From Candidatus Udaeobacter sp. (GTDB lineage: Bacteria > Patescibacteriota > Patescibacteriia > Magasanikbacterales > GWA2-37-8): 64,000 bases of DNA. Shown one piece after another: positions 6,839 to 64,000 of the stretch; positions within the stretch are counted from its first letter, which is position 1; each line of letters begins with the position of its first letter. Location: contig DATION010000006.1 of the NCBI GenBank assembly GCA_035473115.1, positions 521-64,520 of the forward strand, read 5' to 3'. A program made the position numbers and the translations under genes. Below the pieces are notes generated by a model, which saw only the letters and a list, made by a program, of their open reading frames with translations, was not told the DNA's origin and did no database searches.

Positions 6839-6937
6839 GTCATTCCGAATCCCCGTAGTGGATGAGGAATCTATACCTTAAATGAATAGATCCCTCGTCA
6901 CCCGTCCTTCGCGAAGAGCGGGTTCGCTCGGGATGAC
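6839..6937. repeat. MITE-like palindromic repeat, copy 2 (full-length, reverse orientation relative to copy 3)
   Basis: gtcattccgaatcc … gaggaatctat … atagatccctcgt … ctcgggatgac. Its reverse complement aligns block-for-block with 60449-60532. Confidence 0.55.
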
Positions 6938-6950
6938 AAAATAAAAGTAT

Positions 6951-8843
6951 ATGTCATTATTTAAACTTCACTCAAAATTCAAGCCTGCTGGCGATCAGCC
7001 TCAGGCAATAGAAAAGCTGGTTAATGGCCTCAAAAAAGGTGATCATTATCAGACCTTACTTGGTGTTACCGGTTCAGGTAAGACTTTTTCGGTTGCCAAT
7101 ATTATTACCCAGTTCAATAAGCCGGTTTTGGTAATGGCGCCAAATAAAGCTTTGGCCGCGCAATTATATCGTGAATACAAAAATTTCTTTCCGGAAAATT
7201 CCGTAAATTATTTTGTGTCTTATTATGATTACTACCAGCCCGAAGCTTACATGCCAACCAGTGATACCTATATAGAAAAGGAATCGATGATCAATGAAGA
7301 GATAGATCGTTTGCGTCATCAGGCCACGAGCGCTTTGATGTCACGTAAAGATGTAATTATTGTGGCTTCGGTTTCTTGTATTTATAACTTGGGCGTACCG
7401 GCAAATTATTTTGAATCAGCTCTGCATTTATCTGTCGGCCAGCCAATTGTCCGTGGTGATTTGATGCGCCAACTGGTAAAAATTCAGTTTGCTCGAACTC
7501 CAGGCGCGCTGGAAAGAGGTAAATTCCGTTTGCGCGGAGATATGTTTGAAATTATGCCGGCTTCGGAAAAAATAGCTTACCGGATAGAAATTAAAGATCA
7601 AAAAATTTTTGAAATAAATGTGATTGATGTTTTGACCAGAACCGTAAAAGAAAAATTAAATGAAGCGATTATTTTTCCGGTTAAGCATTTTATTTCTTCC
7701 GAACCGCAAATGAAAGAAGCTTTGAAAGAAATAAAACAAGAATTAAAAGAACGTCTGGCTTATTTTAAGAAAAAAGAATTATATTTGGAAGCCGAAAGAC
7801 TGGAGCGCCGCACCAAATATGATTTGGAAATGTTAAAGACTCTGGGGTTTTGTCATGGCATCGAAAATTACTCTCGGCACTTGGCTGGCAAATTGGCCGG
7901 AGAAGCGCCTGATACTTTGTTGTCTTATTTTCCATGGAAAGATGGCCCCAACGGGACAAGCAAGCCGGATTTTTTGACTATTATGGATGAGTCGCATATT
8001 GGTTTACCGCAAGTGCGCGGTATGTATGCGGGTGATCAAAGCCGCAAACAAATTTTGTCTCAATATGGCTGGCGCTTGCCTTCGGCTCTAGATAATAGGC
8101 CGTTGCGGTTTGATGAATTTGAACAGCGAGTTGGCCAGGTGATTTTTACTTCGGCCACTCCCGGAGATTTTGAGATGACTCATTCGTCTACCATTGCTGA
8201 GCAGGTCATTCGCCCTACTGGACTAATTGATCCGCCGATTGAGGTACGGCCGGTGTTTGATAAAAAAACTAACAAAGGCCAAGTGGATAATCTGATGAAA
8301 GAGATTGATAAAGTGGTGAAAAATAACGAAAGAGCGATTGTGAATGTGTTGACCAAAAAAATGGCTGAAGAATTAAATGAATTTTTATTGCAGAAAAATT
8401 ACCAAGTAAATTATCTGCATTCAGATATTAAAACTTTGCAGCGCACCGAGATTTTAACTGATTTTCGGCGCGGTAAATTTAATGTTTTAATTGGCGTTAA
8501 TTTATTGCGTGAAGGTTTGGATCTGCCGGAAGTTACTTTTGTAGCCATTATGGATGCGGATCGAGAAGGATTTTTGCGCAGTGAAGAATCACTGATGCAG
8601 ACTATGGGTCGCGCGGCGCGTAATGTGCAGGGCAAAGTTGTTTTGTACGCTGATACAATTACCGGTTCCATGAAACGAGCTATGGCTGAAGTTGAGCGCC
8701 GGAGAGCCAAGCAGTTGGCTTATAATAAAGAGCATGGCATAACTCCGCAAACCACGCATAAAGCGATTGAAGAATTTTTGGATATTCCTGAGCCTGAAGA
8801 TAAAAAAGAGGTTAAAAATAAAAGACCAAAAAGAAATAAATAA
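6951..8843 (+). CDS. uvrB: Excinuclease ABC subunit B
   Basis: 630 aa. Walker A GVTGSGKT, helicase motifs and a UvrB C-terminal UVR domain. Confidence 0.95.
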   Translation: MSLFKLHSKFKPAGDQPQAIEKLVNGLKKGDHYQTLLGVTGSGKTFSVANIITQFNKPVLVMAPNKALAAQLYREYKNFFPENSVNYFVSYYDYYQPEAYMPTSDTYIEKESMINEEIDRLRHQATSALMSRKDVIIVASVSCIYNLGVPANYFESALHLSVGQPIVRGDLMRQLVKIQFARTPGALERGKFRLRGDMFEIMPASEKIAYRIEIKDQKIFEINVIDVLTRTVKEKLNEAIIFPVKHFISSEPQMKEALKEIKQELKERLAYFKKKELYLEAERLERRTKYDLEMLKTLGFCHGIENYSRHLAGKLAGEAPDTLLSYFPWKDGPNGTSKPDFLTIMDESHIGLPQVRGMYAGDQSRKQILSQYGWRLPSALDNRPLRFDEFEQRVGQVIFTSATPGDFEMTHSSTIAEQVIRPTGLIDPPIEVRPVFDKKTNKGQVDNLMKEIDKVVKNNERAIVNVLTKKMAEELNEFLLQKNYQVNYLHSDIKTLQRTEILTDFRRGKFNVLIGVNLLREGLDLPEVTFVAIMDADREGFLRSEESLMQTMGRAARNVQGKVVLYADTITGSMKRAMAEVERRRAKQLAYNKEHGITPQTTHKAIEEFLDIPEPEDKKEVKNKRPKRNK

Positions 8844-8958: not shown

Positions 8959-9366
8959 TTAGTATACACCAATGGGCGGTAGACCGAGCAATTCAAGCAA
9001 TATGTCAGGCAGAGTATCCTTTCTGGACTCGTGACTGCATCCCGCTTTTCTCAAGGCCCTGTTTGATTCCGGCAGGATAGATACAGCGATAATTATCCCG
9101 CCGAATCCACTCTGTCGTATCTCTCGCACGAGAGGTGGGGTATTGGCTGGGCCTGAACCCAGCGTGCCGTCCATTACGATTGCTGCCCAGTCGGAATGTG
9201 CTCGGAATGTAGTTCTGGCTTCATCCAAGGTGAATGCGGAGAACAACCTTAGTTTGGCTCCTAACTCTCCGTGCCAGCCGATCTGGATATGCTTATCATC
9301 CTCAACCAAGAGGACTTTAGGAAGGTTCACTTCATCCTCAGTCAGGAGGATTTTAGACAGTGTCAT
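8959..9366 (-). CDS. Orphan single-domain response-regulator receiver (CheY-like)
   Basis: KVLLVEDD acidic pocket, a candidate phospho-Asp in AIVMDG, and conserved S and K positions downstream. There is an AGGAG SD 8 nt before the ATG. The region is visibly GC-enriched versus the flanks. Confidence 0.6.
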   Translation of the reverse strand: MTLSKILLTEDEVNLPKVLLVEDDKHIQIGWHGELGAKLRLFSAFTLDEARTTFRAHSDWAAIVMDGTLGSGPANTPPLVREIRQSGFGGIIIAVSILPESNRALRKAGCSHESRKDTLPDILLELLGLPPIGVY

Positions 9367-21115: not shown

Positions 21116-22201
21116 TTATTCGTCGTCTTCGGTTTCAGCACCGCTGTAATCAAGGCCGGCATAATCGGCTGCTCGAACAGCGGTAATAATGGCGTCTAAA
21201 TCGCCGTCAATAATTCTAGGGATACTGTTCCAACTTTGATGAATACGATGATCAGTGATTCGATCTTGAGGAAAATTATAAGTACGAATTTTTTCACTAC
21301 GATCGCCGCTGCCAATTTGGGCGCGTCTTTTTTCGGTAAGAGTGGCCATCTTTTTTTCTCGGTCAGCCGCGTAGATGCGAGAACGTAAAACAGCCATGGC
21401 TTTTTCTTTGTTGGCAGTCTGCGACCGTTCATCTTGGCATTGCACCATTATACCGGTCGGGATATGGATAATTCTGACGGCTGAATAAGTGGTGTTGACA
21501 CTTTGTCCGCCCGCGCCGCCCGAACAAAAAGTATCAATGCGCAGATCTTTTGGTTCGATTTTAATTTCTGTTTCTTCAATTTCCGGCAGAACAGCCACAG
21601 TGATAGTAGAGGTATGAATCCGTCCAGCTTTTTCGGTGTCAGGCACTCTTTGTACACGATGTACGCCCATCTCGTATTTTAAATCCTTGTAAACATTTTT
21701 GCCTTTGATAGAAAAAATAACTTCTTTAAAACCGCCGATGCCAATGCGGTTGGCATCCAAAATACTGGTTTTCCATTTTTTGCTTTCGGCGTAGCGAGTA
21801 TACATGCGGTAGAGTTCAGCGGCAAATAGGGCCGATTCATCGCCGCCCACGCCAGCGCGGATTTCTACGATCACATCTTTTTTATCAAATGGGTCCTGTG
21901 GACGAGTCATTTCGTCCAGTTCTTTTTCCAGGTTTATTTTTTTTGTTTCCAAATCTGGCAGTTCTGCAACAGCCATTTCTTTTAGCTGAGCATCTTCTTC
22001 TTGATTTATCATTGACTGGGTATCAGTAATATTATTTTCTATCGCAGCTAGTTCTTTAATTTTTTCAACTGTTGATTTTAATTCAGTATATTCTTGAGAA
22101 ATTTCTTTTATTTTTTTGGGATCATTAAGTACAGCCGGATTCTGCAGATCGGTTTCTAGATTGGCAAATTTAATTTGTATTTCTTTGTATTTGTTATTCA
22201 T
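21116..22201 (-). CDS. prfA: Peptide chain release factor 1
   Basis: GGQ motif ([12 protein letters not shown]) and a PxT-type tripeptide region ([14 protein letters not shown]), which points to RF1 rather than RF2. Confidence 0.92.
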
Positions 22202-22245
22202 AAGCCTGGCTGTCTTTCATTAATAGAGTGAGGTTGGAAGTTTTA

Positions 22246-22290
22246 ATAAAAAACAGACTCAACACCAATATATTGTAGTCTGTTTTTTAA
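22246..22290 (-). terminator. Symmetric rho-independent terminator after rpmE
   Basis: aacagact … agtctgtt stem with A-run and T-run flanks. It lies 12 nt downstream of the rpmE stop on the minus strand. Confidence 0.6.
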
Positions 22291-22301
22291 ATTTATCAAA
22301 G

Positions 22302-22598
22302 CTAAGCCTTCTTGGCAGCAGCTTTTTTGGCGGTCTTTTTGGCAGCTACAGCCGCTTTCTTGGCTTTTTGGCCTTTGCGGGCTGCGGCAGCGGAAGTTTT
22401 TTTGTCGGAACGTTCTTGGAATTTTTCTACGCGGCGAGCAGTATCAACAAATTTTTGTTTGCCGGTATAAAAAGGATGGCACTTATTGCAAAGTTCCACG
22501 CGGATAGTTTTCATGGTGCTGCCAGTGGTAAAAGTGTTGCCGCAGGCGCAGGTAACTTCCGTGTCATTATGATATTCAGGGTGAATTTTTTTCTGCAT
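22302..22598 (-). CDS. rpmE: Ribosomal protein L31 with a long Lys/Ala-rich C-terminal extension
   Basis: [10 protein letters not shown]…CxC…[11 protein letters not shown]31 zinc-binding core, then a roughly 35-aa AAKKA-type tail. Promoter TTGACA-N17-TATAGT on the minus strand at about 22610-22638. Confidence 0.85.
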
Positions 22599-22786
22599 AA
22601 AATTAAAGAATTTTTATTTAAGTAAGAGAACTATAGCATTATTATTGCCGACTGTCAATATCAAGGATCTATTTTAAGGCATTTTAAAACCCGCTTTTGG
22701 CGGGTTGGTGGGTTCACGTTGGCCATTCTTTAGCCATTACTGAGCTTACTTGCCTCTTAAAAGAGCCTGGTTAACCGTTTCGCACC

Positions 22787-23053
22787 TTATCCGATTAGGT
22801 GGAGCGGTCGGGTAGTGGTCAGGCCGCCTTCATAAGCCAGCCTGTTCATAGCTTGGTGGAAGGCTCTGGCCCACGCTTTGCTTTCGATGGATTGTCCCGG
22901 TGCAGCCCGGTCGGCTGCTATTTCTGCAACCTCGATAAGCGCGTTTCGAGCTTTTATATATTCACAATTGTGAGGCGGTCTTTGCCTAATTATTTCTGGA
23001 ATATCAAATCCAGAGTCATACTTTCCTTCGACGCACGCACATTTTGTGGTCAT
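22787..23053 (-). CDS. Hypothetical 88-aa Cys-containing protein (island gene 1)
   Basis: ATG at 23053 is preceded by AGGAGA 7 nt upstream. The 149-aa annotated ORF is a 5' extension that runs through the promoter region. No family recognised. G+C is about 50%. Confidence 0.45.
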   Translation of the reverse strand: MTTKCACVEGKYDSGFDIPEIIRQRPPHNCEYIKARNALIEVAEIAADRAAPGQSIESKAWARAFHQAMNRLAYEGGLTTTRPLHLIG

Positions 23054-23081
23054 TTTTTTCTCCTGGTTAAAAACCAGATAC

Positions 23082-23110
23082 TTTATACATTGAGTGTTAA
23101 CTATTGTCAA
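23082..23110 (-). promoter_or_regulatory. Minus-strand sigma70 promoter TTGACA-N17-TATAAA for island gene 1
   Basis: -35 is the reverse complement of 23105-23110 and -10 is the reverse complement of 23082-23087, 17 nt apart. A perfect palindrome ctggttaaaaaccag sits at 23063-23077 in the leader. Confidence 0.5.
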
Positions 23111-23117
23111 GGAGAAC

Positions 23118-23146
23118 TTGACAAATCTTGGTTTTTGTGGTATATT
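23118..23146 (+). promoter_or_regulatory. Consensus sigma70 promoter TTGACA-N17-(TGg)TATATT for the hyper-acidic gene
   Basis: TTGACA at 23118-23123 and TATATT at 23141-23146 with a TGg extension. The two divergent -35 boxes form a perfect inverted repeat TTGTCAA-ggagaac-TTGACAA (23104-23124). A roughly 135-nt leader ends in an AGGAGG SD at 23276-23281. Confidence 0.6.
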
Positions 23147-23287
23147 GGTTTGTTGCCTTTTGCAGCCAACAACTGTAGAATAAGCAATACTTCCTAAGGT
23201 TCGGGTGATTTTTACCCGGATTAAAGGATGTGACAATCAACAAAAAACAACGCGGCAGTAAAACGCGATCAACCCAGGAGGAATCAA

Positions 23288-23920
23288 ATGGCAACGAATC
23301 AGGCGCTGAACGTACTGGACCTGGACACCGATGTCCCCGCGGATCCCACGGTTGGGATGAGCGACGCAGAAGTTCTGGAGGGATGGGATGCCCTGCTCGC
23401 CGGTCTGCCCAATGGTGGTGCAGTGGAGCAGTCCGAGGCCGCGGCCACGACGACCAACTCGCTCGATCCCGGCCACGAAGCGGCGCCGAACGATCCCCTC
23501 GAGCTCCAGTTCGAGATCGATGACCAGGTCATGCTCATCGGACCCGTCACGGCCGATGAGCAGCCCAGCGACCACAGCGTCGTCATGGCCAACCCGCCCA
23601 CCGTGGACGAGGAGTGGCCGGCCATCGACAAGCTCGATGTCGTGGCTGCCACTAATCCGGCCGACCCGAACGACGCGGACGAGTTCGGCGGAGACACCAA
23701 GGAGATCGAGCTCCCCCAGTTCCCGGACAGCGCGACCGAGCCGTCGGCTGATGGTGATGGTCAGGCCCCCACCGATCTGGATGCCGACCCCAACTACGCC
23801 GAGTTCGAGGTCGAGGGTCTGGTCCTCGACGAGGACGATCGGCCGCTGATGACCAGCGGTACCATCGTCGACGCCGCGACCCCGTCGTCCCACGACGACC
23901 AGCTGCGCTGCACGGACTGA
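23288..23920 (+). CDS. Hyper-acidic, Pro/Asp/Glu-rich 210-aa protein encoded by a high-GC ORF (island gene 2)
   Basis: ATG 6 nt after AGGAGG. Very high third-position G/C in this frame. Roughly a quarter of residues are Asp/Glu and there are only about 4 Lys/Arg. The overlapping long ORFs on other frames are GC-shadow artefacts. Confidence 0.55.
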   Translation: MATNQALNVLDLDTDVPADPTVGMSDAEVLEGWDALLAGLPNGGAVEQSEAAATTTNSLDPGHEAAPNDPLELQFEIDDQVMLIGPVTADEQPSDHSVVMANPPTVDEEWPAIDKLDVVAATNPADPNDADEFGGDTKEIELPQFPDSATEPSADGDGQAPTDLDADPNYAEFEVEGLVLDEDDRPLMTSGTIVDAATPSSHDDQLRCTD

Positions 23921-23963
23921 CGCAAGTCAATCACGCGCGGCAGCCAGCCGTCACAGCAGTACA

Positions 23964-24013
23964 CCTCGCCCTGACCAGGGAACAGCTCTGGTCACGGCGA
24001 GGCTTTTGTTTTT
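23964..24013 (+). terminator. Strong rho-independent terminator after the acidic gene
   Basis: 15-bp stem cctcgccctgaccag / ctggtcacggcgagg with one mismatch and loop ggaacagct, followed by cttttgttttt. Confidence 0.7.
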
Positions 24014-24103
24014 ATATAAAAAAATTGAACCCCGCTATGCCGTAGCATGCGGGGGCAGATGGTTTCAGACTTACCAGTGGTCATGAAAATGTTGTGCTTT
24101 GTC

Positions 24104-24490
24104 TTATTTTAAGACGGAAACTGGTAGATTTTGGGTAGAGAGGTGCGCCAGCCAGTCTTTGATCCCAACTAGGAAGGATTCAACAGCTTTCAGGCTATCT
24201 GTGCTATTATTATCCTCTTTGAGATTAACAAAGTTGACATGGCCCATATCCAGCTCTCTTGCTGGCATGATGCCAATCCTGACTTTTATTTTTAGCGTTC
24301 TCCACTGGGCATCAGTGTTTTCGATCTCTCCTTTGATTTCCCACTGTGGAGTGAGTGGAATGAAAAATGTGAAGTAGCCATTTTTATTGGCTTCGTAGCG
24401 ACGGGAGCACCGGGGAAAGAGCTTGAGCAGAAGCTCTTTGAGTATTCTGCAGTTTTCTACTACGATTTTTCGTTCATGATCATCCAGCAT
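24104..24490 (-). CDS. Hypothetical 128-aa protein (island gene 3), convergent with the acidic gene
   Basis: ATG at 24490 with an AGGAAG SD 7 nt upstream. Minus-strand promoter TTGACT-N16-TAGTAT at about 24570-24600. No family recognised. Confidence 0.5.
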   Translation of the reverse strand: MLDDHERKIVVENCRILKELLLKLFPRCSRRYEANKNGYFTFFIPLTPQWEIKGEIENTDAQWRTLKIKVRIGIMPARELDMGHVNFVNLKEDNNSTDSLKAVESFLVGIKDWLAHLSTQNLPVSVLK

Positions 24491-24627
24491 GGTTTTACTT
24501 CCTAAGTGTGGTTTGGCCAAACCTGTTGTGCGTGTGTGTTGGTATGGCCAATACTAGCAGTTTTAAGGGAAAAGTCAATGTATTATCTGGTTTAGTAGTA
24601 AAGGTAAGATAAATTAGCATCTAACTC

Positions 24628-24656
24628 TTGACTATTTTCTATTACCCTTGTATACT
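24628..24656 (+). promoter_or_regulatory. rpsB promoter TTGACT-N17-TATACT
   Basis: Hexamers at 24628-24633 and 24651-24656. An AGGAGG SD precedes the rpsB ATG. Confidence 0.5.
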
Positions 24657-24747
24657 TGTTTTATCTTAATTTAATCTCTCGCTAGCCAACTTTTTCCTCC
24701 CTACGGACCATTCCGGGGCAAGGCTAGGAGGCAATAATAAGGAAAAT

Positions 24748-25530
24748 ATGAGTAAAATGCCAACACTGTTGGAAATGTTAAAGGCCGGAGTTCACTTTGG
24801 CCATCAGAAATCACGCTGGCACCCCAAGATGGAACAGTACATCTTCGGTGTCCGTAACGGAGTCCACATTATCGATTTGGAAAAAACTCAGGTTCAGCTT
24901 GAGAAAGCTCTGGATTATGTAAAGAATTTGGCAAGCAAAGGCCAAGTTATTTTGTTTGTGGGAACAAAACGTCAAGCTAGAGAAATTACCAAGGCTGCAG
25001 CTGTTAGCTGTGAAATGCCATATCTGGTAGAACGCTGGATCGGCGGATTACTAACTAATTTTGATGAAGTTAAACGCCGTTTGAAAAAATATCATAATTT
25101 AAAAGAACAATTTGCTACCGGTGAAATTGAAAAATATACCAAGAAAGAACAGGTAACAATGAAGAAGCAATTAGAAAAATTAGATAAATATTTAATCGGT
25201 TTGACAGCTTTGGATAGAATGCCAGATGCTTTATTTATCGCTGATATGCGTACCGAAAAAACCGCTTTAGCTGAAGCAGAAAGAACTGAAATTCCAACTG
25301 TGGCTATCTCTGATACTAATGTTAATCCGGAGAAAGTTAATTATGCTATTCCGGCCAACGACGATGCTGTTAATTCTATAAAATTAGTCACTGATTTGGT
25401 TGCTGAAGCTATTAATGAAGGCCGCAAAGAATTTGAAAAGAAAAAATTAGAACGCGCTAAAGAAGAACCAGTAAAGCGCGACGCTGTAAAAGTAGAAAGA
25501 CGAGCTCTTAAAAAAGATGAATCAGTTTAA
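24748..25530 (+). CDS. rpsB: Ribosomal protein S2
   Basis: MLKAGVHFGHQKSRWHPKM… canonical S2 N-terminus. Confidence 0.95.
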   Translation: MSKMPTLLEMLKAGVHFGHQKSRWHPKMEQYIFGVRNGVHIIDLEKTQVQLEKALDYVKNLASKGQVILFVGTKRQAREITKAAAVSCEMPYLVERWIGGLLTNFDEVKRRLKKYHNLKEQFATGEIEKYTKKEQVTMKKQLEKLDKYLIGLTALDRMPDALFIADMRTEKTALAEAERTEIPTVAISDTNVNPEKVNYAIPANDDAVNSIKLVTDLVAEAINEGRKEFEKKKLERAKEEPVKRDAVKVERRALKKDESV

Positions 25531-47827: not shown

Positions 47828-47912
47828 GCCCAGGTGGCGGAATTGGTAGACGCACTACCTTGAGGTGGTAGCGCCGCAAGGCGTGGAGGTTCGAGTCCTC
47901 TCTTGGGCACCA
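47828..47912 (+). tRNA. tRNA-Leu (anticodon GAG), class II with long variable arm, CCA encoded
   Basis: GCCCAGG acceptor stem, D-loop AATTGGTAGA, anticodon stem-loop CTACC-TTGAGGT-GGTAG, long variable arm, T-loop GGTTCGAGTCC, 3' CTTGGGC-A-CCA. Confidence 0.85.
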
Positions 47913-61666: not shown

Positions 61667-64000
61667 ATGTATTTAAAGCGTCTGGAAATTAAAGGATTTA
61701 AGTCTTTTGCCGAAAAAACGGTTTTGGATTTTTTGCCATACAAAAATAACCGCTATAGCATTACGGCTGTGGTTGGTCCAAACGGTTCTGGTAAATCTAA
61801 TATTTCCGATGCCGTGCGCTGGGTAATGGGTGAACAGAGCCTGAAGACTTTACGCGGCAAAAAAAATGAAGATGTAATCTTTAGCGGCTCGGAAGCCAAA
61901 GGCCAATTAAGCGCCGCCGAAGTGACTATGGTTTTGGATAACAGTAATCCGACCATGATGCAGGATTATCCGGAAATTACAGTTGGCCGCCGTTTGTATC
62001 GTTCCGGAGAAGGCGAGTATTTAATAAATAATAATCCGGTGCGATTGCTGGATGTGCATCTGCTGTTGGCCCAAGCCCAGTTTGCTCAGCATTCATACAG
62101 TGTGGTGGGGCAGGGAACAATTGATAAGCTTCTGACCGTTAGTCCGGCTGAGCGCAAAGATTTTTTGGATGAAGCTTCGGGTATTAAAGAATTTCAAATT
62201 AAACAGCATCAGGCCGAGCTTAAGTTTGCCCGTACGGTAGAAAACGTCACTCAAGCCGAAAGATTGGTAGAAGAAGTTGAGCCGCGTTTAAAAATTTTGG
62301 CGCGCCAGGTAAAAAAATTAGAGCAGCGTCAAGAAGTAGAAATTCAGTTGCGAGAAAATCAAGAACAATATTATGCTTCGGTTTATTTAACCAATAAATT
62401 AGAATTAGATAAATTAAATTCGGTTTTGACTGGCGTCGATGCTGATTATCGCAGCGCGTTTAAAGAATTAGAAGAAGTACAAACCGAACTGTCGGCTTTG
62501 GCTCATGATTCGGCTGAAAAAGAAGAAGAAAATAAAATGTCTGATAAAGACAGTCAAGTTATTGCCCAGCATAGAAAAGATCTAGAACAGATTTCCAAAG
62601 AAAAAACCAATGCCCAGTTAAAAATATTTTCTTTAGAGAAACAGATTTTTCAAGATCAATCCGAACAAAACTATCGCCAGATCAGCGGTCTGTTTGCGGC
62701 TCAAGCTGTTTTAGAAAATAAAGATAAGTTTGGTACGGTGCATGGTCTGGTGGCCGAGTTGGGAGAAGTGGAAGAAAAATATCAGTTGGCGCTGGAAGTG
62801 GCAGCCGGGTCTTATCTGTCAGCCATAGTTGTGGCCGATGATAACGTGGCCAAATCGGCGATTGAATTTTTGCGCAATAACCGTTTGGGTTTTGCCACTT
62901 TTTTGCCGGTAAATAAAATTAATCCCAGACCGGCCGAACAGGGAATAGATAAAATTTTAGCAATGCCGGGCGTAGTTGGTTTGGCGGCGGAAATTGTTAA
63001 GCACGAAGCTAAATTTGCTAATATTTTTTCTTTTGTTTTTGGACAAACAATAGTGGTGGAAGATTTGGCAGTAGCACAAAAAATCGGTATCGGCCGAGCG
63101 CGGATGGTAACTTTGGCCGGAGATATGGTAGAAAAAACCGGCGTGATGAAAGGCGGCTATAAACAGATTAAAAAAGACGGCTTGAAATTTTCGGCGCATT
63201 TATCTTGGAGCAAAGATAGACTGGCTGAATATCAAGAACAGATAAATATAGAAAAAGAAAAAATTATCCAATTAGACTCTCGCTACGAAGCTGCCAAAGA
63301 AAAAGTTTTAGAATTAGAATCAAAAAGAGAAGCGGCTAATTCCAAAACAAAACTGCTCAAAGCCTTTTCATTGCAAGAAACAATGCAGAAAAAGCAGAGT
63401 TTGGTAAACGAAGTTTTGGCCAGAAGAAATGATTTAAAAATTCAGACTGCCAGACTGGAAACAAGACGTGATTCTTTAGCCGAAGAAATTACTGCCGAAT
63501 TAAATTCGAACATAGAAGCGATATTGGAACGCAAACCGACTGTTGTCGGAACGGATAAACTGGCAGATATAATGAGTGAAATTCAAAAATTAAAATATCA
63601 ACTTAGTTTGATTGGCGGCATTGATCAAGAAGTGGTGGCTGAGTATGAACAAACTAAAGAAAGATTTGATTTTCTTTCAACGCAAATTGCCGATTTACGC
63701 GCCGCTATGGCAGATTTGGAAAAGATGATTGTGGAGCTTGATGAAATAATGAAGAAGAAACGCGCTGCTGCCTTTAAAAAAATTAGAAAAGAATTTGATC
63801 GTTATGTAAAAATATTATTTGGCGGCGGTAATGGTGATATTCACGAAATTTATGGTGAACAAAAAGAAGAGGACGAAGCGGTAGAAAATGCAGGCAATGT
63901 TGAAGGCGAAGAACCAGTTCAAGAACAACCAAGAAGCAAAGATAAAGTTCTAACCGGCATAGATGTATCTATAAATCCGCCGAATAAAAAAATTAAAAAT
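61667..64000 (+). CDS. smc: Chromosome segregation protein SMC, 3'-truncated by the window edge
   Basis: N-terminal Walker A GPNGSGKSN, a long coiled coil and a hinge (…GTVHGLVAELGEVEEKYQLALEVAAG…). Upstream extended -10 TGgTATATT at about 61619-61627. Confidence 0.9.
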   Translation, partial: MYLKRLEIKGFKSFAEKTVLDFLPYKNNRYSITAVVGPNGSGKSNISDAVRWVMGEQSLKTLRGKKNEDVIFSGSEAKGQLSAAEVTMVLDNSNPTMMQDYPEITVGRRLYRSGEGEYLINNNPVRLLDVHLLLAQAQFAQHSYSVVGQGTIDKLLTVSPAERKDFLDEASGIKEFQIKQHQAELKFARTVENVTQAERLVEEVEPRLKILARQVKKLEQRQEVEIQLRENQEQYYASVYLTNKLELDKLNSVLTGVDADYRSAFKELEEVQTELSALAHDSAEKEEENKMSDKDSQVIAQHRKDLEQISKEKTNAQLKIFSLEKQIFQDQSEQNYRQISGLFAAQAVLENKDKFGTVHGLVAELGEVEEKYQLALEVAAGSYLSAIVVADDNVAKSAIEFLRNNRLGFATFLPVNKINPRPAEQGIDKILAMPGVVGLAAEIVKHEAKFANIFSFVFGQTIVVEDLAVAQKIGIGRARMVTLAGDMVEKTGVMKGGYKQIKKDGLKFSAHLSWSKDRLAEYQEQINIEKEKIIQLDSRYEAAKEKVLELESKREAANSKTKLLKAFSLQETMQKKQSLVNEVLARRNDLKIQTARLETRRDSLAEEITAELNSNIEAILERKPTVVGTDKLADIMSEIQKLKYQLSLIGGIDQEVVAEYEQTKERFDFLSTQIADLRAAMADLEKMIVELDEIMKKKRAAAFKKIRKEFDRYVKILFGGGNGDIHEIYGEQKEEDEAVENAGNVEGEEPVQEQPRSKDKVLTGIDVSINPPNKKIKN

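Follow-up and report, generated by a model that had tools for sequence, protein, structure and literature searches.

The gap between the divergent rpmE and rpsB genes of the uncultured, ultra-small CPR bacterium studied here is probably an insertion hotspot occupied by a mosaic of units of different ages, the second and third of which have been inherited. Within the window (the whole 64-kb stretch of DNA that was analysed), positions 22660-24625 would represent lineage-specific accessory genes lodged in a single dispensable site flanked by the -35 boxes of rpmE(-prfA) and rpsB(-tsf). The mosaic would comprise three self-contained units, each with a promoter, Shine-Dalgarno sequence (SD), ORF and terminator, so that the flanking essential operons are left undisturbed. 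Unit 1, orf88, would have its origin in a gene family that occurs in high-GC phage early regions and would be nested between the -35 boxes of an older promoter pair; unit 2, orf210, would encode an acidic, probably disordered polyanion; and unit 3, orf128, a protein with the generic, protein-binding kind of alpha/beta sandwich. The last two units would already have been present in the common ancestor shared with the closest known relative (genome L082), and since then their proteins appear to have changed at 10-25 times the rate of their neighbours.

Genomes of CPR/Patescibacteria are tiny and tightly packed, and where and how new genes enter them is little known. The locus would constitute a precise, repeatedly used gene entry point, a few bases that separate the -35 boxes of essential ribosomal-protein operons, and the set of relatives lets turnover at the rpmE-rpsB gap be measured. 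It also yields three uncharacterised small protein families, one of which ties CPR genomes to a high-GC phage gene pool.

Organization of the locus

The features of the insert and its edges are the following (window coordinates).

22630-22658, minus strand: rpmE promoter (left edge of the insert), TTGACA-17-TATAGT with TG; orthologous to the L082 rpmE promoter
22682-22706, minus strand: intrinsic terminator of orf88, AACCCGC-loop-GCGGGTT then a T-run (fold -12.2 kcal/mol)
22787-23053, minus strand: orf88, ORF of 88 aa, GC 0.50
23082-23146, no single strand: predicted bidirectional promoter, -35 boxes back to back, serving orf88 leftwards and orf210 rightwards
23153-23287, plus strand: 5' leader of orf210, ~135 nt, GC 0.42, with a central hairpin at ~23196-23228 and the SD AGGAGG at 23276-23281
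23288-23920, plus strand: orf210, ORF of 210 aa, GC 0.66
23964-24013, plus strand: intrinsic terminator of orf210 (fold -31.7 kcal/mol), then TTTTGTTTTT (T-run); the GC-rich block ends there
24016-24056, minus strand: intrinsic terminator of orf128 (fold -18.8 kcal/mol), 86% identical to L082 6731-6773
24104-24490, minus strand: orf128, ORF of 128 aa, GC 0.43
24551-24578, minus strand: orf128 promoter, TTGACT-16-TAGTAT with TG, 9/12 matches (promoter scan)
24628-24747, plus strand: rpsB promoter and conserved rpsB leader (promoter scan, alignment); right edge of the insert

The three ORFs were recovered as the sequence-only reading had given them (orf88, with 3 Cys, and orf128 on the minus strand, orf210 on the plus strand), and its statement that each gene has its own promoter, SD and terminator was borne out by promoter scanning or reading and by the folds. 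The orf210 promoter, TTGACA-17-TATATT with TG upstream, scores 11/12 matches in the promoter scan; that of orf88, TTGACA-17-TATAAA, was read by eye from the sequence, having been overlooked by the scanner because its last base is A. The -10 boxes lie at 23141-23146 (orf210, TATATT) and 23087..23082 (orf88, TATAAA). The SDs are AGGAGG, 6 nt upstream of the ATG, for orf210, AGGAAG for orf128 and AGGAG for orf88.

The -35 boxes of the two divergent promoters form the arrangement TTGTCAAG-N5-CTTGACAA at 23104-23124. Its interpretation as an operator palindrome or repressor site was rejected, the two halves being the -35 boxes of rpmE and of the orf210 orthologue g120 in L082, where the same bidirectional element serves these two genes. 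The rpmE and rpsB promoters of a further relative, L002, show the same back-to-back design, and a bidirectional promoter appears to be the simpler reading of 23104-23124. DNA homology to both L082 and L002 stops at the rpmE promoter, and alignment places both limits of the insert inside the interval that separates the -35 boxes of the divergent promoters of rpmE and rpsB. The island originally delimited at 22640-24540 is a real insert, with its limits moved to ~22660-24625 by the comparison with relatives.

Recurrent use of the rpmE-rpsB gap

In close relatives the rpmE-rpsB gap measures ~190-260 bp, confirming the segment as extra DNA. Among 66 distinct loci with the divergent rpmE-rpsB arrangement, the gap is empty (188-330 bp) in 29 and carries cargo (331-5562 bp) in 37. 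The contents of the filled gaps are mutually unrelated and consist mostly of ORFans devoid of Pfam domains. Inspection of this junction in related genomes, which the sequence-only reading had proposed, thus revealed empty gaps, other cargo and, in L082, a related module. Judged from these comparisons, the gap is a recurrent insertion/replacement hotspot of the clade.

No integrase or transposase occurs within 10 kb on either side of the insert, no direct repeats were found flanking it, and the sole tRNA of the 64-kb window is at 47828, with none at the insert. Because none of these four elements was found, we only infer the mechanism of insertion, which may have been uptake and recombination without a dedicated integrase. 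Of the traits that define genomic islands, the insert displays presence/absence at a core-flanked site and deviating composition, and lacks mobility signatures. A recent recombination tract around the island was considered and rejected; the four-fold divergence of rpmE and rpsB is low (0.28 and 0.32) owing to ribosomal-protein codon constraint, and that of the distant ribosomal protein L25 is likewise low (0.33).

Composition of the insert and coding content of orf210

Sliding-window analysis, as had been suggested, identified the island as the sole strong outlier in 64 kb: 300-bp windows average 0.396 GC (sd 0.049) and the island peaks at 0.673. Maximum-likelihood change points at 23251 and 24004 delimit a GC-rich block (23251-24003) of 66% GC versus 39.6% for the genome, or +5.6 standard deviations. 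The step begins 37 nt upstream of the orf210 ATG, in the 3' end of the leader, and stops just past the terminator stem, so that the earlier placement of the jump at the ATG was near but not exact. The composition of the orf210 promoter and leader is host-like, as had been claimed (leader GC 0.42 versus 0.396 for the genome). The ORF itself has 66.2% GC, with GC1/2/3 of 0.735/0.431/0.82 and a four-fold-site GC of 0.835. GC3 is 0.45 in orf88 and 0.48 in orf128, compared to 0.30-0.37 in the adjoining host genes. The foreign composition attributed to all three genes is therefore strong for orf210 but mild for orf88 and orf128, whose GC is only mildly raised. The description of the trio as one island did not hold, its members being unlike in composition, age and distribution.

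Several lines of evidence argue that orf210 is a genuine coding gene. Besides the GC1/2/3 periodicity, identity to g120 per codon position is 0.58/0.58/0.40, the third position being the least conserved, and the two proteins have in common the motifs DEFGGDT and Y..[FY]EV.G.V.LD.D.RPL..SGTI. Two antisense ORFs of the GC block, 218 and 133 aa long, were discarded for their atypical GC1/2/3 and lack of SD or promoter. The predicted protein has a pI of 4.05, 50 D+E versus 4 K+R, and is rich in Pro, Thr and Ala. It is probably disordered; AlphaFold2, run on the single sequence without alignment, returned a pLDDT of 44 and a pTM of 0.15, which is weak evidence of disorder. Aligned over 85 aa, the N- and C-terminal halves share 31% identity (E 0.018, in a tiny search space), which is no more than suggestive of an internal duplication. 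No relative of orf210 was found among 1.84 billion representatives, and viral, plasmid and phage searches gave no match for orf210 or orf128.

Over 184 nt, the leader and its upstream region share 72% identity with the sequence 5' of g120. The leader folds with a z-score of -4.2 in the window and -0.3 in L082, and the structure common to these two sequences is limited to a 5' stem and the central hairpin, the latter kept through compatible substitutions. The leader has no Rfam match at E <=1. A riboregulatory role of the leader is not claimed: its 5' end pairs with codons 2-5 of orf210 in the window, and this pairing is absent in L082. A leader "platform" common to the cargo of L003 and L163 was rejected, with nhmmer E values of only 0.0015 and 0.05 and the L003 hairpin located elsewhere; homology of the orf210 leader to the leaders of these two loci is uncertain.

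Comparison with the closest relative

Genome L082 carries, at the same site, orthologues of orf210 (g120) and of orf128 (P0004, its one relative), with 37-41% identity, compared to ~95% for core proteins. The dS of orf210/g120 is 1.47 versus 0.6-1.5 for core genes, and that of orf128/P0004 is saturated; dN reaches ~0.60-0.64 for these units versus 0.02-0.17 for core genes between the window and L082. All evolutionary conclusions on orf210 and orf128 refer to this one genome pair, the window and L082 being the only carriers. Profile HMMs of all three families, run against 17,773 ORFs of 171 loci, recovered no members beyond those known. Since both orf210 and orf128 have L082 orthologues at the same site, the module would predate the split of the two genomes.

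Possible maintenance of the GC-richness of orf210

One possibility, to be held tentatively, is that orf210 is an old resident gene whose synonymous GC is upheld either by selection or by a recombination hotspot at which gene conversion is GC-biased. The core four-fold sites of the window and L082 differ at 47%, with W<->S differences at 35%. A two-state amelioration model has a ceiling of ~0.6-0.72 four-fold GC, even from a 100% start, and the observed values of 0.835 (115 sites) and 0.75 (64 sites) lie above it; under this model, simple vertical inheritance with neutral amelioration would fail to explain them. Two other cargo families point in the same direction: one of 197 aa, GC-rich in both L006 and L163 (dS 0.475 versus 1.0-1.26 for core genes), and one of 91 aa, GC-rich in both of its carriers, L003 and L086. 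However, the amelioration model is crude and draws on one genome pair and few sites, the mRNA is only slightly more stably folded than shuffled sequences (z -2.6 and -1.7), and repeated replacement from a GC-rich pool would yield the same pattern. Also, W<->S changes make up roughly half of the four-fold differences that separate orf210 from g120, so the GC is not strictly fixed.

It is conceivable, if rather doubtful, that orf210 and orf128-type genes make up an undescribed, fast-evolving CPR two-protein module (disordered polyanion plus sandwich partner) residing in a promoter-gap hotspot, with GC actively maintained in an AT-rich genome, as it would also be in the 197-aa and 91-aa families. 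The maintenance would then result from selection on synonymous sites or biased conversion and would not be a relic of recent transfer. If the GC of orf210 is indeed maintained, atypical composition does not always denote recent transfer, which is the assumption beneath most island-detection methods.

Encoded proteins and possible functions

None of the three proteins yielded a meaningful score in Pfam, PHROG, PADLOC or NCBIfam, in agreement with the earlier statement that they belong to no recognised family. The orf88 protein contains a CxC...H-N-C-x-Y motif followed by helices, and is a small putative zinc-binding protein. Its 13 aligned relatives form a small family that includes phage proteins. 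Homologues in L168-L170 occur in phage early/replication modules (RecT, replication initiator, HNH), the one in L168, a contig of 68% GC, adjoining RecT, an exonuclease, a replication initiator, a resolvase and HNH; another is found in the IMG/VR contig L171. Two AT-rich contigs, L083 and L166, carry GC-raised singletons of the family, and L082 has no counterpart. From this distribution orf88 looks phage-derived, and the proposal of a phage-derived module stands for orf88 but not for orf210 and orf128, which have no viral relatives.

The predicted fold of orf128 is a sandwich of helix, five-strand sheet and helix (pLDDT 75, pTM 0.69), whose top matches are eukaryotic FP domains. Sandwiches of the FP domain (Fbxo7, PI31), PsiB, DR_1245/YbjN and T3SS-chaperone-like types share 5-15% identity with orf128, and none of these gave a profile match to it; because the fold is very common, membership in these families cannot be claimed. 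PsiB, the anti-CRISPR AcrIIA11 and T3SS chaperones were rejected as identities for orf128, which shows neither family-specific profile matches nor the structural similarity expected of them.

It had been suggested that the layout of the trio is that of a conflict module, and the trio, or the orf210/orf128 pair, could form an anti-defence, toxin-antitoxin-like or host-interaction system, such as a DNA-mimic inhibitor with its partner. We consider this unlikely. No homology of orf210, orf128 or orf88 to DNA-mimic, anti-defence, toxin or antitoxin families was detected in Pfam, PHROG, PADLOC, NCBIfam or profile searches, and the mobile-element context is absent. A type II toxin-antitoxin system was rejected on the same lack of Pfam, PADLOC and NCBIfam matches and on gene arrangement: the genes are oriented divergently or convergently and end in separate terminators, and orf210 and orf128 in particular are convergent and not co-transcribed. 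The fold matches of orf128 likewise count against a conflict module, being to a very common sandwich. The DNA mimics T7 Ocr, ArdA and DMP12/DMP19 (PMC2731889, PMC3439906, PMC3643605) are folded proteins with a DNA-like charge array. The orf210 protein resembles them in its small size, very low pI and dense Asp/Glu, but differs in having no sequence similarity to them and no confident fold: the prediction gives no Ocr- or ArdA-like structure, and no homology to these two was detected in Pfam, PHROGs, PADLOC or a PDB profile search. Speculatively, orf210 might be a polyanionic mimic or decoy directed at a basic target that binds nucleic acids, with orf128 as a partner that may bind orf210.

Origin of the GC-rich block and authenticity of the assembly

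The sequence-only reading viewed orf210 as a captured or engineered ORF under host signals and as a recent, non-ameliorated transfer, that is, a foreign high-GC ORF dropped behind a resident host promoter and leader. Such a capture would account for the sharp composition step at 23251 and 24004, for a GC3 of 0.82 resembling a high-GC donor and for the host-like composition of the promoter and leader; the combination of strong promoter, long AT-rich leader and GC-raised ORF also recurs in L003, L006 and L163. It is nonetheless highly unlikely. In L082 the homologous leader (72%) is joined to a homologous acidic ORF that is GC-rich too, indicating that the AT-rich promoter and leader were inherited with the gene. 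The GC rise starts within leader sequence that the two genomes share by homology, which leaves no clear junction. The dS of orf210/g120 (~1.5) is not below that of core genes, both orf210 and orf128 have orthologues at the L082 site, and no donor-like homologue occurs among the 1.84 billion representatives.

That the GC block is a structured non-coding RNA, with the 210-aa ORF a by-product of its GC-richness, is extremely improbable: long ORFs do occur in several frames of GC-rich DNA and the leader folds well in the window, but codon periodicity is strong, conservation relative to g120 is lowest at third codon positions and protein motifs are kept, an SD lies 6 nt 5' of the ATG, no Rfam match was obtained at E <=1, and the fold z-scores of the block are weak (-2.6 and -1.7).

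All RpsB relatives are from Patescibacteria or Magasanikbacteria, and on this evidence the host is a Magasanikbacteria-like Patescibacterium, not "Udaeobacter". The public record labels this Patescibacterium as a Verrucomicrobium ("Udaeobacter"). Exact look-up of RpmE and RpsB retrieved the source sample only, with no near-identical strains. A mis-joining of a high-GC contaminant into an AT-rich contig, to which the large composition jump and the wrong taxonomic label of the MAG could point, has a negligible likelihood and is already effectively refuted: an independent Logan assembly is identical to the window base for base over 20.6 kb, the block is framed by a matched SD and terminator in a coherent regulatory layout, L082, from a different sample (SRR22808056), has a related GC-rich gene with homologous leader at the same rpmE-rpsB site, and further relatives hold GC-raised cargo there.

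Comparison with known systems

Integron cassettes are promoterless, are bounded by attC sites and depend on the IntI integrase and attI. An integron cassette array was rejected for this locus, which has no integrase and contains genes in mixed orientations with their own promoters and simple terminator hairpins. Phage morons are autonomous promoter-gene-terminator units of deviant composition. Each gene of the trio resembles them in being flanked by a promoter and terminator of its own and in deviating in composition from the DNA around it, and orf88 alone combines these traits with phage homologues; unlike morons, the trio resides in a cellular chromosome and not in a prophage, and orf210 and orf128 have no viral relatives.

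Integration hotspots and flexible genomic islets with conserved core genes on either side are a general concept of comparative genomics. The rpmE-rpsB gap is akin to them in the polymorphism of content and presence/absence between the same two core genes, in the atypical composition and ORFan-rich nature of the cargo, and in needing no dedicated integrase. In contrast to these, the site is tiny and exact, set where the -35 boxes of two essential ribosomal-protein promoters stand back to back, its cargo consists of single small self-contained genes and not of operons or mobile elements, and the host is a CPR bacterium of roughly 1 Mb.

Organization and base composition of the insert

The three small ORFs described in the sequence-only reading were all recovered, flanked by prfA-rpmE (minus strand) on one side and rpsB-tsf (plus strand) on the other.

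Genes of the rpmE-rpsB insert
22787-23053, minus strand: orf88, ORF confirmed, GC3 0.45
23288-23920, plus strand: orf210, ORF confirmed, GC1/2/3 0.735/0.431/0.82
24104-24490, minus strand: orf128, ORF confirmed, GC3 0.48

As had been proposed, each gene has its own promoter, SD and terminator hairpin. The absence of a recognised family was also borne out, with no match of meaningful score in Pfam, PHROGs, PADLOC or NCBIfam; an Rfam scan of 22000-25000 returned nothing relevant at E of 1 or below. The orf210 product is hyper-acidic (pI 4.05; 50 D+E versus 4 K+R). Against a window mean GC of 0.396 (sd 0.049, 300-bp windows), sliding-window analysis confirmed the orf210 block, which reaches 0.67 at 23300-24000, as the sole strong outlier across 64 kb. 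The GC3 of neighbouring genes is 0.30-0.37, compared with 0.82 in orf210, and that of orf88 and orf128 is just mildly elevated. Maximum-likelihood change points fall at 23251 and 24004, so that the GC-rich block takes in the SD, ORF and terminator of orf210. The jump is a sharp step, as claimed, and starts near the ATG though not exactly at it, its onset lying 37 nt upstream.

Elsewhere in the window, a minus-strand gene (8959-9366; GC 0.51, GC3 0.53) encodes a 135-aa receiver-only protein (KVLLVEDD...) that looks CheY-like. It has its own AT-rich promoter and a GC-rich terminator, being a second GC-raised small gene with the layout of the island genes. The GC3 of an 80-aa ORF (62957-63199, minus strand) is 0.56, exceeding the mean of the window genes by over 2 SD. 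An AT-rich perfect hairpin between prfA and rpmE (22246-22290) is most likely an rpmE terminator or an attenuator before prfA; a weak microRNA-model hit that it gave on either strand was discarded as spurious.

Authenticity and host assignment

The 130,528-bp contig of the NCBI record encodes the three proteins, and so does a Logan assembly made independently from run SRR9656165 (40,533 bp), which is identical to the window along 20.6 kb. A related module occupies the same site in a contig of a different run, SRR22808056 (locus L082, the sister genome). For practical purposes, a chimera or an engineered construct is therefore ruled out. The NCBI record (HSR89439.1, HSR89441.1) is labelled 'Candidatus Udaeobacter sp.' (Verrucomicrobiota). 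The close RpsB relatives, from GTDB genomes and JGI metagenomes, are all Patescibacteria, mostly Magasanikbacteria, and the 39% GC and gene content agree with Patescibacteria (CPR). The label is likely a mis-binning or classification error.

The rpmE-rpsB gap as an insertion hotspot

The divergent arrangement prfA<-rpmE | rpsB->tsf is widely conserved. In 66 distinct loci with this arrangement, the gap measures up to 330 bp in 29 (minimum 159), 331-1000 bp in 13 and more than 1000 bp in 24 (maximum 5562), and 15 of the 37 occupied gaps hold a 300-bp window at least 0.10 above the GC of the locus. Among relatives the same gap is empty in some and filled with unrelated cargo in others. Empty gaps of ~190-220 bp occur in close relatives (L002, L005/L094, L088 and L010), and in two others (L003 and L004; RpsB 92-93%) rpsB is preceded by over 6 kb of different cargo. 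To judge by sequence, this cargo includes a 245-aa secreted protein resembling a trypsin-type protease, a 317-aa protein with a putatively Fic-like motif and a 708-aa protein that appears to be a lipoprotein and has TPR-like repeats. The gap cargo of different genomes is mutually unrelated, and no Pfam domain was detected in the ten gap proteins scanned.

Aligned with empty gaps, the window retains both the rpsB promoter and leader (24625-24747) and the rpmE promoter (22630-22658), and in L002 the two -35 boxes stand back to back with a few bases between them. The extra DNA of the window (~22660-24625) therefore lies exactly between the -35 boxes. Neither an integrase or transposase gene nor a tRNA or flanking direct repeat was found.

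The rpsB 5' leader itself (24657-24747) is near-invariant among close relatives. Its stem CUCGCUAGCC...GGCUAGGAG and an inner CCCU/GGGG helix are conserved, with compensatory changes at 7 of 17 pairs in 11 relatives. No Rfam model matches it at E of 1 or below, and a clade-specific role in S2 autoregulation is probable.

An inherited acidic-gene unit

L082 is the closest relative found (identity to the window: RpsB 95%, RpmE 96%, PrfA 94%, Tsf 89%). Word-indexed searches of 5.8 billion proteins matched orf88, orf210 and orf128 to themselves only. An exhaustive phmmer search of 1.84 billion representatives with a concatenated query returned no relative of orf210 and a single one of orf128 (P0004, 139 aa, E of 3e-11), located in the same rpmE-rpsB gap of L082 and again divergent from rpsB. 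This gap also encodes a 120-aa protein, g120 (pI 4.05; 31 D+E versus 3 K+R), with a GC of 0.58 versus 0.37 for the locus. It is 43% identical to residues 125-193 of orf210, and the motifs DEFGGDT and Y..[FY]EV.G.V.LD.D.RPL..SGTI are common to both. Over the orf210 promoter and leader (23104-23283), identity to the DNA upstream of g120 is 72%, so the AT-rich promoter and leader are part of the acidic-gene unit and were inherited together with it; the orf128 terminator region is 86% identical. A homologous promoter, leader and acidic gene at the same site in L082 contradict the proposal that a cargo ORF was recently captured and placed under host signals.

The idea of a single three-gene island is likewise contradicted by L082. 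The element TTGTCAAG-N5-CTTGACAA, palindromic in appearance, consists of two back-to-back -35 boxes, which belong to rpmE and g120 in L082 and to orf88 and orf210 in the window, where rpmE retains its orthologous promoter further left. The orf88 unit is therefore nested between the -35 boxes of an older rpmE|acidic-gene promoter pair, an insertion site of the same kind as the primary hotspot.

Profile HMMs run on 17,773 ORFs of 171 loci added no member to the acidic or the orf128 family, and searches of viral contigs, phage records and plasmids were equally negative. Between g120 and the orf128 homologue, L082 encodes another acidic protein (g183, 183 aa; 6844-7395, minus strand) whose segment 'ADQFGGVDELP' resembles DEFGGDT..E..LP of orf210/g120; the family HMM does not detect it.

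Divergence and persistent GC-richness

Divergence between the window and L082
Core genes: dN 0.02-0.17, dS 0.6-1.5, omega 0.03-0.15
orf210/g120: dN 0.64, dS 1.47, omega about 0.43
orf128/P0004: dN 0.60, dS saturated, no omega

The module dates back at least to the split of the two genomes, with its proteins changing 10-25 times faster than neighbouring ones. Identity between orf210 and g120 by codon position is 0.58/0.58/0.40; the least conserved third position, together with the GC1/2/3 periodicity, supports orf210 as truly coding in its annotated frame. That rpmE and rpsB diverge less at synonymous sites is attributed to ribosomal-protein codon constraint, because the distant L25 gene has the same value.

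At core four-fold sites (GC 0.43 in the window, 0.32 in L082), 47% of positions differ, with W<->S differences at 35%. Under a two-state amelioration model ~0.4-0.55 of an initial excess is kept per lineage, and therefore a gene resident since the split is expected to show at most 0.6-0.72 four-fold GC, even from a 100% start. The observed values are 0.835 in orf210 (115 sites) and 0.75 in g120 (64 sites). The GC rise of the window begins within the leader homologous in L082, with no visible junction.

Other cargo of the hotspot is also GC-rich. A 197-aa membrane-anchored ORFan found at the site in two loci (L006, 4761-5354; L163, 5761-6357) has a GC of 0.55-0.56 in 0.39 GC genomes, a four-fold GC of 0.61-0.64, dS of 0.475 versus 1.0-1.26 for the core and omega of 0.23. 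Upstream of it stand two back-to-back -35 boxes and a leader containing a 14-bp hairpin. Two close relatives (RpsB 93-94%), L003 (3840-4115) and L086 (1-240), share at the same hotspot an acidic GC-rich ORF of 91 aa, distinct from the orf210 family; a similar strong promoter precedes it in L003, and in L086 the contig ends within it. The GC could persist because synonymous GC is under selection, because the site is prone to recombination and undergoes GC-biased conversion, or because the genes are repeatedly replaced from a GC-rich pool. Messenger RNA structure was unconvincing as a cause (z of -2.6 and -1.7).

Phage affinity of orf88

The phmmer search recovered 13 small relatives of orf88 (37-57% identity) sharing the motif C-x-C-x-E-[GA]-R ... 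H-[DN]-C-x-Y-[IV]-x-x-R-N-x-L-I-P-x-A-E ... W-x-x-x-F-H-x-A-M-N-R-L, which looks like a putative 3Cys-1His metal site followed by helices; the family has no Pfam or PDB match. One member (P0008) is encoded on a phage contig of 68% GC, flanked by a phrog_7371 protein and a replication initiator and close to RecT, exonuclease, resolvase and HNH genes. A second phage-side relative, in an IMG/VR contig, likewise sits in a recombination/replication block. Two others (P0005 and P0006) are singletons of GC 0.62 and 0.50 amid AT-rich genes (0.38-0.48), on contigs of CPR-like appearance, one with pilin-like genes and the other with a ClpB-like neighbour. orf88 is best read as a small phage-derived gene that entered AT-rich genomes more than once. 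With low confidence, its product is predicted to be an independent phage-type small metal-binding protein.

Possible function of the acidic unit

The orf210 product, 24% D+E and Pro/Thr/Ala-rich, has a pLDDT of 44 in a single-sequence prediction, which would fit, weakly, a disordered protein. Fold-search matches of orf128 include Med17 and SPC2, all matches being at 5-15% identity; the fold is a protein-binding sandwich of a widespread type, which does not allow orf128 to be assigned to any family, and no viral structural match was found. The best functional guess, offered with low confidence, is that the orf210 polyanion would be a decoy or mimic directed at a basic target that binds nucleic acid, and that the co-inherited orf128-type protein would be its partner. 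The high dN is suggestive of an interaction that is under diversifying or relaxed selection.

Comparison with known systems

Genomic islands and horizontal transfer in Patescibacteria have been reported in general terms (PMC12455944), as has a hypervariable gene in a Gracilibacterium (PMC6851277); neither report describes the rpmE-rpsB locus or its protein families. The locus is genuinely foreign-looking and is best classed as a core-flanked accessory-gene hotspot, a known kind, filled with ORFan moron-like units. Three features raise it above the routine: the very precise insertion site between -35 boxes, the tie of orf88 to high-GC phages, and coding sequence that has stayed GC-rich in two cargo families at least and possibly in a third.
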